Translations under genes and position numbers: made by a program
Notes under the pieces: model-generated
What the model was told of the DNA's origin: nothing
Database searches by the model: none
What the model saw: only the letters and a program-made list of their open reading frames with translations
Shown: piece after piece, positions 13,711-17,413 of the stretch
Numbering within the stretch: position 1 is the stretch's first letter
How the letters are laid out: every line of letters starts with the position of its first letter
Assembly (NCBI GenBank): GCA_963666275.2
Contig: CAXXOA010000002.1
Span: 1,120,001-1,184,000, forward strand
Direction of reading: 5' to 3'
Length of the DNA: 64,000 nt
Source of the DNA: Oceanispirochaeta sp.
GTDB lineage: Bacteria; Spirochaetota; Spirochaetia; DSM-2461

Positions 13711-13778
13711 ATCTACAGTTGGTCTATATCATAGTTCAAAACTCAGGTTTCGGCAAAGAGCCGGGACCCGAGTCTTTT

Positions 13779-14708
13779 TTATCCCGCACACTTCTCGTAG
13801 AAATCCCGGTAGCAGATCCTCTCCTCTGAACTGACCGCAGCCATGGCTTCCCGGGGGTGCTGGTTGAGCAGGCCCGAAACGCCGTAGGGAATCCGGTAGC
13901 CCCACTTGTAGCGTCCCATCAGGGGTTCAATGTAGCCCTGAATGGCATTGACCACAGAGGCTATATTGCTCTTTGCCGGGTCTATCAGGGGGAGCAGCAG
14001 CTCCAGAGGCGTATTGCCGGCCCCCCGGCCCATTCCGTAGTAGGAGGCGTCAATATACTCAGCTCCCGCATCCATAGCCGCCAGGCTGTTGGCCAGGGCC
14101 ATCTGAATATTGTTATGGCCGTGGAATCCCAGCTTCATATCCGGGCAGTTTTCCCTGTATGTTTCCAGGCGGCTTCGGATGTCATGAGGAAGAAAAGAGC
14201 CGAAGGAATCGGCCAGGTAAACACCCTCGGCTGTGGTACCGTTGACCCTGTTCAGGCACTGGCGCACCACTTCGGGATCGCTGGCAGACACAGCCATGAT
14301 GTTGAAGAAGGTTGTGTATCCCAGCTGATGCAGATAGTCCGAGAGTTCTATGGCTTCATCAATCTGATGAACATAGCAGGCCAGTCGGACCATGTCGATC
14401 ACAGAGTCTTCGGCAGGGATAAAATCCTCTTTGAAGCAGCGTCCGATATCTGCCATGACAGCAATTTTCATGAATCCCGGCTTTGCTGTGATCACCTTTC
14501 TCAGATCTTCCTCCCGGCAGAAACGCCAGGGGCCGTGGTCTGCAGGGGAAAAGACTTTCGGGCTGACCCTGTAGCCCATCTCCATCACATCCACACCCGC
14601 TTCCAGATTGGCCTGATACACGGCTCTGACGGCCTCCAGGGAAAACTCCCAGTTGTTCATGAGCCCCCCGTCCCGGATTGTACAGTCAATTACCTGAACC
14701 TTCTTCAT
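13779..14708 (-). CDS. DRE-TIM metallolyase / HMGL-like aldolase catalytic-domain protein
   Basis: DCTIRDGG, YLADSFG, GFHGHNN, GMGRGAGN. Confidence 0.88.
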   Translation of the reverse strand: MKKVQVIDCTIRDGGLMNNWEFSLEAVRAVYQANLEAGVDVMEMGYRVSPKVFSPADHGPWRFCREEDLRKVITAKPGFMKIAVMADIGRCFKEDFIPAEDSVIDMVRLACYVHQIDEAIELSDYLHQLGYTTFFNIMAVSASDPEVVRQCLNRVNGTTAEGVYLADSFGSFLPHDIRSRLETYRENCPDMKLGFHGHNNIQMALANSLAAMDAGAEYIDASYYGMGRGAGNTPLELLLPLIDPAKSNIASVVNAIQGYIEPLMGRYKWGYRIPYGVSGLLNQHPREAMAAVSSEERICYRDFYEKCAG

Positions 14709-14807
14709 CTCTTTTCCTCCCCAGGTCAGTTTCGGATTTTCCTTTTTCCTCCCTTCTCCAGGGAGGATTCACCCTCTCCTGCAGGAGGCCGTAAAAGAAA
14801 AAGAGCC

Positions 14808-14850
14808 AAAAAAAAGACCCGGGATTCAGCAGAACTGCTTCCCGGGTCTT
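14808..14850 (-). terminator. Attenuator intrinsic terminator upstream of the aldolase
   Basis: Minus strand AAGACCCGGGA...TCCCGGGTC followed by T8. Confidence 0.85.
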
Positions 14851-14870
14851 CATAACCTTTCTTACTCTGG

Positions 14871-14972
14871 TTATCGCTTCTTTTTAAGCGTTACAAGACC
14901 CGGGCGTCTAAAATAAAAATAGAAACCGAAAAAAGAGAAAAAGAAATTTTCTGCCCAAGTCTTGTTATTCAT
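14871..14972 (-). CDS. Phe-rich attenuator leader peptide MNNKTWAENFFFSFFGFYFYFRRPGLVTLKKKR (33 aa)
   Basis: Translated by hand; 8 Phe, 2 Tyr, 1 Trp; overlaps antiterminator segment 14895-14904; TTGACA at 15012-15007. Confidence 0.8.
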   Translation of the reverse strand: MNNKTWAENFFFSFFGFYFYFRRPGLVTLKKKR

Positions 14973-15099
14973 TTGTTTTACTACTCTATAGCAGGGAACG
15001 GATCTGTGTCAATCAATGATTCCGGTATTTCTTCCAGCGTCCCTTTTACAATTCTGAATCCAGGGGTTCCTGATTCCTGAAAATTCCCAAAGGGGGGCG

Positions 15100-17127
15100 C
15101 TAGATGCTTTTTCTTACCATTTTCTCAAGATCCCCGGGAATCGGTTCATGCATGATCTCTTTCCAGGCTTTAAGAAGCTGTTTGGGTTTGATCGTGTAGG
15201 GCTGAACTGCAATGTATTTGTATGTATCATTGCTTACAAGGGATTTTGCCACAGCCAGAGCGGTGGCCTGTCCCTGTTCGTAGGGCTTCTGGGTACTGAG
15301 GCCCATAATCATCTGTTTTCTTGCCATATAGGAAGCAACGGCATAGTCCAGGTCGCAGGTGAAAATGGAAATATCCGTCCTGTTCATTTCCTCCAGAGCT
15401 TTGATAGCCGAGAGGGCAGGCTGATCCCAGGATATATAGAGGGCTTCGATTTCAGGGTGGCGGGTGATCAGCTTTTTGCAGACATCGTAGGTGTGTTCTA
15501 TTTTCCCGAAGGATTCTATGCCCATGATTTCAATATTGCCATAGCTCTCCCGGATGACTCTTTCCGCCGAAGAGTCTCTGAGATGGGTTCCGTAAAACTG
15601 GGTTCCGTGGATAAGGAATCCCACTTTGGGGCTGGCTTTGTGCTTCAGGTATTCTCCCAGGAGAATACCTGCATTGGTTCCGTTCTCCTTTTCATTGACA
15701 GAAACACAGGATACATAATCATCTTTTGCGAGTCCTTCGGGGATATTACTCATAAAAACAAGTTTTGTAGACTTTGCCAGTTCCTTGAATTTCTCCGCTG
15801 TGTATTTATCATCTGTCGGAATCGCAATCAGAGCATCCGGTTTCTGCATCTGTATCGCTTCCAGCTGGGTTAGCTGAAGGGCCGGATCAAACTGGGCATC
15901 CATGACGGAAACCACAGAGATTCCGTAATTGCCCAATGTATTTTTTATGGCATCTTCATGCAGTCTGGTCCAGGCATTTCCCCCGTAGTGAAAGGATATG
16001 GCTACCCGGAAGTTGCCCTCCCGAAGAGTCTTTTTTTCTCTTTCCGACAGGGATATGCCGTCAGGAGCAACGGCTTTTTCTCCAAAGGGGCCCCAACCTA
16101 TCATCCTGGTGGACTTTCTGATTATCAATTCCATATCAATTTCAACATCCGATTGCTGTTCTGCATTATCAGGATCAGGCTCCGGATTCACCACTCTCTC
16201 CACAGCTTTCCGGGCAATCAGCTGGGAATTGTGGCGTAAAACAGTTATGGGCGGTGTGGACATTTCGCACCAGGTACTATCGGCAATCCCTATGATTGAC
16301 AGATCCTGGGGACACTCCTTACCAATGTTCTGAAGGGTTTTCAGGGCGCTGTAAGTAAGGTTGTTTTCGCAGGCAATGATGGCAGAGGGCTGGAATTTTT
16401 CGTAAATCATCTGAATCTGATGTTCCATCTCCTCTTCTGTACTGTTTTTTTCCAGCTGCAGGATCAGAGCTGTTCTGTAGAAAATTTTGTTGTCCTTCAG
16501 TGACTTCTTGTATCCGGAGATTTTTTCGGAGACACAGAAGGGGTTATCTTTCTGGACAAACAGGGCTATTGTCCGGTGGTTGCTGTTGATAAGGTGCTGC
16601 GTCGCGTTGTATACGGCTTTGTGGTAGGAGGAGTACACATAGGGGGTGGAAAAGTTGGCAATTTTTCTCTCAATACAGACAAAGGGAATCCGTGTTTTGG
16701 CTATTTTCTTATAGTATTTGCCATTATCACTGGCAGGGGCCAGGATGATCCCGGCCGTATTTTTATCCGCTACAATACGCTGGAGGATTATTTTCTCCTG
16801 TTCGATATTGTCGTTGGTCAAGTGAACAGACAGATGATACCCGGCCTTCACAAGGAGGGTATTCAGATGAGAGGTAATCTCTATATTCAGAGAACTGGTT
16901 AAATCGGGGATGATCAGAACAATCACAGAATCTTTTCCAACCATCAGGGACTCTGCTATGTCCTTCTGTTTGATGACATAGCCGGTGGCTTCAATCGCAT
17001 CCTGTACTTTTTTAACCAGTTCCGGTCCCACGTATCTTGTTTTATTTATTACATGAGAAACAGTGGCAATAGAAACATTCGCCTGTTCTGCCACATCTTT
17101 CACAGTAGTTTTCTTATTTCTGTTCAT
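15100..17127 (-). CDS. LacI-family regulator fused to a second sugar-binding domain
   Basis: TVKDVAEQANVSIATVSHVIN; LacI ends at LIIRKST; then ~320-aa RbsB-like domain. Confidence 0.88.
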   Translation of the reverse strand: MNRNKKTTVKDVAEQANVSIATVSHVINKTRYVGPELVKKVQDAIEATGYVIKQKDIAESLMVGKDSVIVLIIPDLTSSLNIEITSHLNTLLVKAGYHLSVHLTNDNIEQEKIILQRIVADKNTAGIILAPASDNGKYYKKIAKTRIPFVCIERKIANFSTPYVYSSYHKAVYNATQHLINSNHRTIALFVQKDNPFCVSEKISGYKKSLKDNKIFYRTALILQLEKNSTEEEMEHQIQMIYEKFQPSAIIACENNLTYSALKTLQNIGKECPQDLSIIGIADSTWCEMSTPPITVLRHNSQLIARKAVERVVNPEPDPDNAEQQSDVEIDMELIIRKSTRMIGWGPFGEKAVAPDGISLSEREKKTLREGNFRVAISFHYGGNAWTRLHEDAIKNTLGNYGISVVSVMDAQFDPALQLTQLEAIQMQKPDALIAIPTDDKYTAEKFKELAKSTKLVFMSNIPEGLAKDDYVSCVSVNEKENGTNAGILLGEYLKHKASPKVGFLIHGTQFYGTHLRDSSAERVIRESYGNIEIMGIESFGKIEHTYDVCKKLITRHPEIEALYISWDQPALSAIKALEEMNRTDISIFTCDLDYAVASYMARKQMIMGLSTQKPYEQGQATALAVAKSLVSNDTYKYIAVQPYTIKPKQLLKAWKEIMHEPIPGDLEKMVRKSI

Positions 17128-17146
17128 CTTTTCTGTCTCATTTTTA

Positions 17147-17413
17147 TTTACGTAAAAAACCTTCAGTAAGAATAGCATTTCAGTTTCTTAAGGTCAAAAT
17201 ATTACTGAAAAATCGGAAATTCGGGATTTTTACATAAAAAAATAGCTCCCACTCAGATAGCTTTTTTGAGGAATTATACAGTAGAATATAGGTGTATTCA
17301 AACATAAAACAGTGAATTTACGTAAATAATATTAAACAATCCGTTAAAATCTTAATTTTTGAATAAAAAAACTTGACAGATAGGATACTGTGGTTTAATT
17401 TTACGTAAAATTA
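17147..17413. promoter_or_regulatory. Three LacI-type operators with TTTACGTAAA core
   Basis: 17147-17156, 17316-17327, and perfect 18-bp palindrome TAATTTTACGTAAAATTA at 17396-17413 overlapping the -10 of a TTGACA (17373) promoter. Confidence 0.75.

Follow-up and report, generated by a model that had tools for sequence, protein, structure and literature searches.

In the 64,000-nucleotide stretch of Oceanispirochaeta sp. DNA analysed here (the window), a class II aldolase of an uncharacterised DRE-TIM family is encoded behind what its sequence makes almost certainly a ribosome-stalling attenuator responsive to aromatic amino acids. That the aldolase of the attenuated clade acts in aromatic amino-acid synthesis is highly probable, and we lean towards a reaction in which it joins pyruvate or oxaloacetate to erythrose-4-phosphate and yields DAHP. 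A further-reaching reading, to which we assign a probability of roughly 0.55, takes this widespread family as a natural source of DAHP that needs no PEP and is unrelated to DAHP synthases I/II; in some lineages it would be the sole shikimate entry, and in these spirochaetes an isoenzyme for starvation under attenuator control. Three lines of evidence, namely aromatic attenuation in one clade, linkage to aroB in four and loss of the canonical synthase in another class, point together to DAHP, the substrate of AroB.

Promoter, leader peptide and alternative helices

The features of the locus are compiled in Table 1. The earlier note on this DNA had described an uncalled leader of 33 aa, a stretch complementary to the 5' arm of the following terminator and a terminator ending in T8, and had read them as pheL/trpL-type attenuation. 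The leader was confirmed with its 8 Phe, 2 Tyr and 1 Trp codons, the complementary stretch CCCGGGTCTT (14904-14895) forms with AAGACCCGGG (14850-14841) a segment 2:3 duplex of -23.4 kcal/mol, and the T8 run could be placed at 14815-14808, 3' of helix 3:4. The attenuation reading itself is well supported by the predicted anatomy and its conservation. The anti-antiterminator and the sigma70 promoter are features absent from that note. TTGACA is present upstream of all five orthologous leaders, and the leader mRNA is predicted to start near-leaderless.

Table 1. Features of the aldolase locus (positions of the window)
Feature	Position	Strand	Remarks
sigma70-type promoter TTGACA-18-TAGAGT	15012-14983	-	10/12 consensus matches; 10 nt 5' of leader ATG
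Leader ORF, 33 aa; control codons Trp6, 8 Phe, 2 Tyr	14972-14871	-	
Segment 1, anti-antiterminator, partner of segment 2	14964-14953	-	Folding
Segment 2, antiterminator arm	14905-14894	-	Folding
Segment 3, terminator 5' arm and antiterminator partner	14850-14840	-	Folding
Segment 4, terminator 3' arm and T8 tract	14824-14808	-	Folding
309-aa DRE-TIM (HMGL-like, PF00682) class II aldolase, uncharacterised family	14708-13779	-	
Hairpin with T-rich tails 3' of aldolase stop	13746-13768	.	Called on +; T tail of - strand read from the sequence
lplA own promoter	13756-13728		

Folding gave three alternative helices, namely 1:2 (14964-14953 with 14905-14894), 2:3 and 3:4, the last of which, formed with the terminator 3' arm 14823-14814, rivals the 2:3 duplex with -23.1 kcal/mol. 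The ribosome has a footprint of 16 nt; with this value assumed in the computation of stall positions, stalls at Trp6-Phe19 keep segment 2 free and those at Tyr20 and Phe21 partly cover it. The marks of an attenuator were found together: clustered control codons, mutually exclusive antiterminator and terminator with a T tract, a pause helix and a segment 2 that is free on stalling. Upon shortage of aromatic amino acids, a ribosome stalled at Trp6-Phe19 would mask segment 1 and leave segment 2 free, so that helix 2:3 would form, the terminator would be blocked and the aldolase gene would be transcribed. When the leader is translated to its end, helix 3:4 would form instead and lead to termination.

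Among 65,049 short ATG ORFs of the genome, an aromatic-rich run followed by a strong terminator and a downstream gene was found in only two, the aldolase leader and a pheS leader, and the same scan recovered the Leu leader before leuA as a positive control. The leader-terminator combination exceeds chance expectation in this genome-wide scan. Rfam gave nothing at threshold; Phe_leader RF01859 scored 20.1 against a gathering threshold of 55 bits (E 2.7). No comparable leader was found by our scans before the two canonical DAHP synthase genes of the genome. The pheS leader (G000:C2:537881, + strand) lies outside the window and is the second Phe-rich leader with terminator, pheM-like and close behind a promoter; the Leu-rich leader with terminator precedes leuA at G000:C1:2533712 (+).

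The hairpin 3' of the aldolase stop likely ends a monocistronic transcript. A role of the leader as regulator of lplA was excluded because this hairpin and a separate promoter intervene and the flanks of the orthologues differ. Divergent from a sugar ABC cluster, window 15100-17178 (-) encodes a LacI regulator of 692 aa with an extra C-terminal periplasmic-binding-type domain. The window DNA agrees with contigs of two out of two sequencing runs with zero differences, both runs stemming from one sample that is perhaps the source of the window.

Promoter, leader and terminator are kept in all five closest orthologous loci (L008-L012; 66-80% identity), which are titled Spirochaetaceae, Spirochaetia or Oceanispirochaeta and have different flanking genes. 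Phe and Tyr codons occur in 6/6 leaders and a Trp codon in 5/6, a pointer to the common, pre-chorismate pathway. In the alignment of these six sequences, 89% of the cells of helix 1:2 are paired and three pairs show two-sided change (9/500 shuffles); the outer helix 2:3 is 98% paired with covariation within shuffles (73/500), and helix 3:4 is 98.5% paired (241/500), so that with six sequences covariation rises above shuffles for helix 1:2 only. The leader pattern matched the same five of 38 family genomes as the close orthologue, and a reversed control pattern matched none. The closest orthologue (L012, G011:C8:83582-84509) has an intact leader and a frameshifted aldolase gene, reflecting either real decay or an assembly error.

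A phylum sample of 401 genomes yielded no additional close orthologue, and neither the viral scan nor the metagenome scan (17/64 parts), the latter among the matches listed, gave further leader-bearing loci. No T-box or leader was found across the broad aldolase family by simple pattern scan. Of the leaders or aro-gene linkage for which the earlier note would have homologues searched, the leader held in all five close orthologues and aroB linkage in a few loci (see below), but an aromatic leader with terminator was found in none of 142 other loci of the family, 13 of which have less than 500 nt upstream.

Gene neighbours and distribution of canonical DAHP synthases

The genome encodes an intact type I-alpha DAHP synthase and an intact I-beta/prephenate dehydratase fusion, both with preserved motifs, and aroB, aroDE, aroK, aroA, aroC, AroH, prephenate dehydratase, tyrA and trpA were all found (aroDE and aroK by motif only). 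The two intact enzymes exclude the case of a genome devoid of DAHP synthase, and the suggestion of the earlier note that the aldolase may replace this enzyme is wrong here: the attenuated aldolase is an addition and replaces nothing. The fusion protein (L001:574-2478, - strand) has 634 aa; comparable frames of 628-680 aa are present in most of the 38 family genomes, all of which have PF00793 matches. Catalytic motifs have been lost from the synthase half of the fusion in G329, G396 and G402, which are Treponema-like genomes. The lower-scoring type I-alpha synthases of Treponema-like genomes were rejected as degenerate candidates because they keep their own catalytic motifs. In G402 (99% complete), which has the aldolase, aroB and aroC, the search for PF00793 synthases gave no more than a degenerate domain.

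Neighbours were surveyed for 171 loci, not all independent, of which 127 have at least 1 kb on both sides; the wider family has about 40-46% identity. The aroB gene lies within 1 kb of the aldolase gene in seven loci, spread over four clades of the aldolase FastTree tree, and at 4 kb in an eighth. Aldolase-aroB gaps are operon-like in L191, L192, L082 and L099, with aroB 3 nt 5' of the aldolase gene in L099; it stands directly 3' in G114, G095 and G170. At L138, a transketolase-aroB pair is convergent with an aldolase-eda pair. The other 164 loci are without aroB within 1 kb. In the 171 loci, aroF, aroDE, aroK, tyrA and trpA were not found near the aldolase gene; aroA occurred once at 3.9 kb and aroC once beside a distant relative.

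PF00793 matches are present in 46 of 48 other carrier genomes, some of these matches being KdsA. G278, which has no PF00793, was rejected as a synthase-free case since a class II enzyme is present. In three related carriers the only PF00793 match is KdsA, there is no class II synthase, and aroB is kept, as is aroC in both genomes tested. Their class, that of G438, was therefore sampled with 61 genomes, for which completeness is not given; most of their PF00793 matches were assigned to KdsA by score and three of them were read. Of these genomes, 29 have the aldolase and 59 have aroB; as to DAHP synthases, class II is present in 33, a type I-beta enzyme that exceeds its cut-off in 15 and I-alpha in one. 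Sixteen of the 61 are without type I-beta, I-alpha or II DAHP synthase, and G467, whose sole copy has neither the metal Cys nor the KPR motif, was counted as the seventeenth.

The aldolase occurs in 15 of these 17 genomes versus 14 of the 44 others (Fisher p=1.1e-4). With clades collapsed the enrichment has p=0.01, with G467 counted as intact p=2.9e-4, and additionally without the three seed genomes p=1.4e-3. A test on independent pairs gave 3.0 pairs in the same direction and 0.1 in the opposite one (median p 0.25, not significant). The aroB tree of 59 genomes contains one supported clade of seven without DAHP synthase throughout, in which aroB and aldolase are kept and the genomes measure 7-10 Mb. 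Outside this clade, 8 of 22 carriers are without DAHP synthase, and among single-copy non-carriers the figure is 2 of 17 (p=0.0025). AroB' was found in none of the 17 genomes without intact synthase; G095, in which aldolase and aroB are linked and DAHP synthase is missing, does possess it. G478 and G499 keep aroB, yet searches for DAHP synthase, AroB', eda and the aldolase gave nothing in them; they are either incomplete assemblies or have yet another entry enzyme.

Solitary loci with unrelated neighbours, which make up the majority, the DAHP synthase retained in most carriers and the outcome of the independent-pairs test would also fit a pyruvate aldolase with another substrate and a general task in sugar-acid or central metabolism, or an enzyme that mainly cleaves DAHP. 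Only the spirochaete clade would then have been recruited to aromatic control, perhaps by a side activity, and shared ancestry together with incomplete genomes would explain the aroB links and the losses. We regard this as unlikely given that seven related genomes of such size are without DAHP synthase and all have aroB, that the proportion among carriers outside the clade exceeds the miss rate of non-carriers, and that aroB adjacency recurs in four clades; an enzyme induced by aromatic starvation would be expected to make DAHP and not to cleave it. The reaction put forward in the earlier note, pyruvate plus erythrose-4-P, is made more likely by the aroB linkage and by the enrichment in genomes without DAHP synthase, but the canonical synthases kept by most carriers and the loci without aroB speak against it.

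A commoner neighbour than aroB is a gene for an Eda-type (KDPG) aldolase, found within 0.45 kb in 32 of the 171 loci, directly downstream of the family gene (e.g. L110:2200-2835). The Schiff-base Lys is retained in these partners, and in many of them ACGG takes the place of the PTGG of KDPG aldolases. The eda gene is enriched in genomes without intact DAHP synthase (10/17 vs 8/44, p=0.004) and stands beside the aldolase gene in all seven genomes of the synthase-free clade. All this would suit an arrangement in which DAHP comes from the Eda-like class I enzyme, KDPGal aldolase being capable of this too, with the DRE-TIM enzyme as a helper that, e.g., forms pyruvate from oxaloacetate or acts on another sugar-acid phosphate. 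It seems improbable to us, however: five synthase-free carriers (G467, G474, G476, G488 and G507) have no eda match, the attenuated copies stand alone, and the aroB operons of L191, L192, L082 and L099 have no eda neighbour.

Fold, active site and proposed reaction

The earlier note had called the regulated gene an HMGL-like aldolase, and PF00682 indeed scores above its cut-off. In the model (pLDDT 89), a TIM barrel is extended by helices at the C-terminus; together with the RD and HxH motifs and PF00682 this barrel marks the protein as a DRE-TIM metallolyase. No match to the DAHP synthase I/II domains PF00793 and PF01474 was found in the aldolase, PF00682 being its only domain. The nearest structure is 3dxi (BVU_2661, 30% identity), the best match in both sequence and fold, followed by 4-hydroxy-2-oxovalerate (HOA) aldolases. 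Every NCBIfam cut-off is missed: the best named matches, those to 4-hydroxy-2-oxovalerate aldolase, reach 130-145 bits versus cut-offs of 286 and 229 (TIGR03217 and NF006049), and the Claisen-type families LeuA, CimA and NifV at most 74 bits versus at least 414. In the alignment, Leu16 occupies the place of the RDGxH histidine, His21 of DmpG, which we take to be a catalytic residue.

Among 8,000 candidates scored, 7,256 were homologues, a count that includes distant relatives; within the family, proteins often bear the label 'nucleoid-structuring protein H-NS' or '4-hydroxy-2-oxovalerate aldolase' and carry the specific motifs WGYxxPY and NxHP. Relatives of the 3dxi type have PF02348 neighbours or fusions in four loci picked by eye from 14, which is consistent with pyruvate-plus-aldose chemistry in the wider group. 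Viral contigs (L218-L263), some of them giant-virus-like, contain distant HMGL-like aldolases that adjoin or are fused to cytidylyltransferases, TPP enzymes or acetaldehyde dehydrogenase.

The aldehyde pocket of BphI is lined by Leu87 and Leu89 according to the available part of PMC3962088. These residues align with Met85 and Asp87 of the aldolase, which are invariant in 160 family sequences; position 90 is Arg or Lys in all 160 and position 47 in more than 90%. The invariant Asp87 and the basic residues at 90 and 47 suggest a polar, probably phosphorylated aldehyde, and Arg47 and Arg90 are candidate phosphate-binding residues. An aryl-pyruvate precursor, the second option of the earlier note, is disfavoured because the invariant Asp replaces the pocket Leu of BphI, with Arg or Lys nearby. 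Such a route, in which an aryl-pyruvate or related Phe precursor would be made from an aromatic aldehyde or aryl 2-oxoacid by salvage or chain elongation downstream of chorismate, could account for the dominance of Phe in the leader (8 of 11 control codons), and DRE-TIM relatives, albeit weak matches, elongate 2-oxoacids. We judge it very unlikely, as besides the polar pocket (Asp87, Arg90) and the low Claisen-type scores there is no dehydratase, dehydrogenase or transporter partner in any of the six leader loci, the post-chorismate genes are present in the genome, and the aroB links would be left without account. A role as an ordinary 4-hydroxy-2-oxovalerate aldolase in the catabolism of aromatic rings, to which the best named matches, the automatic names and one plasmid copy adjoining a meta-cleavage cluster point, is largely refuted by scores far under the cut-offs, the replacement of His21 by Leu, the lack of an acylating aldehyde dehydrogenase in all five leader genomes tested and an attenuator that would shut the gene off when aromatic amino acids abound.

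From the observed cassette, its conservation, the fold, the aroB linkage and the loss pattern we infer both the regulation outlined above and the following chemistry for DAHP formation. Asp13, His196 and His198 would hold the metal and Arg12 would stabilise the pyruvate enolate, with Asp87, Arg90 and Arg47 binding the hydroxylated, phosphorylated aldehyde. Oxaloacetate as donor would lose CO2. DHQ synthase (AroB) would pull the reversible aldol reaction forward. The aldolase of this spirochaete would be a third, PEP-sparing entry enzyme without regulatory domain that is controlled at transcription, and in some other lineages the family may provide the only entry enzyme.

Relation to known systems

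Shikimate-pathway genomes without DAHP synthase are a known gap, and KDPGal aldolase occurs in only 14/108 such proteomes according to the accessible part of PMC3018139. If our reading is true, the aldolase family would fill this gap, a large family of so far unassigned role would gain a function, and such genomes would have to be reassessed in predictions of auxotrophy. For the production of aromatics, the family would supply a natural entry enzyme that spares PEP and has no regulatory domain, a goal so far approached only via an evolved class I aldolase. The literature covered, including the available portions of GapMind 2020 and 2026, PMC9026213, PMC5879953 and PMC13678936, makes no mention of the aldolase family in DAHP synthesis.

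The attenuator is a further member of the known pheL/trpL-type leaders. With attenuators of the pheL/trpL/leuL type it shares the control-codon leader, the 1:2, 2:3 and 3:4 helices and the T-tract terminator; in contrast to these, its leader has control codons for Phe as well as for Tyr and Trp, is near-leaderless, occurs in spirochaetes and precedes a gene that is not annotated in aromatic synthesis. Regulatory precedents exist in the available parts of two papers: uORFC-13-1, likewise an aromatic leader, is a Phe uORF before aroF and controls a DAHP synthase gene (PMC8632094), and aroF/aroH motifs are listed for Shewanella (PMC2659441).

The aldolase resembles DmpG/BphI (TIGR03217; PDB 1nvm, 4lrs) in the DRE-TIM barrel and the RD and HxH metal motifs, with TM-scores of 0.78-0.83, but scores under the cut-off, has Leu for His21 and Asp for Leu89, lacks a dehydrogenase partner and possesses its own WGYxxPY and NxHP motifs. 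BVU_2661 (PDB 3dxi), its best match, is a putative aldolase without assigned function; unlike this type, the family described here is a separate one without C-terminal fusion or sugar-nucleotide cluster and is linked to eda, aroB or the aromatic leader. With DAHP synthases I-alpha, I-beta and II it would share the product DAHP and the place in the pathway, whereas there is no family match, the predicted donor is pyruvate or oxaloacetate and not PEP, and a regulatory domain is absent. The closest functional parallel is a variant of KDPGal aldolase (DgoA), a class I pyruvate aldolase which, according to the accessible parts of PMC2431125 and PMC3018139, forms DAHP and thereby feeds the shikimate pathway in DAHP synthase-deficient E. 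coli. That variant is a laboratory-selected Schiff-base enzyme, whereas for the aldolase reported here we propose a naturally occurring, metal-dependent enzyme of class II.
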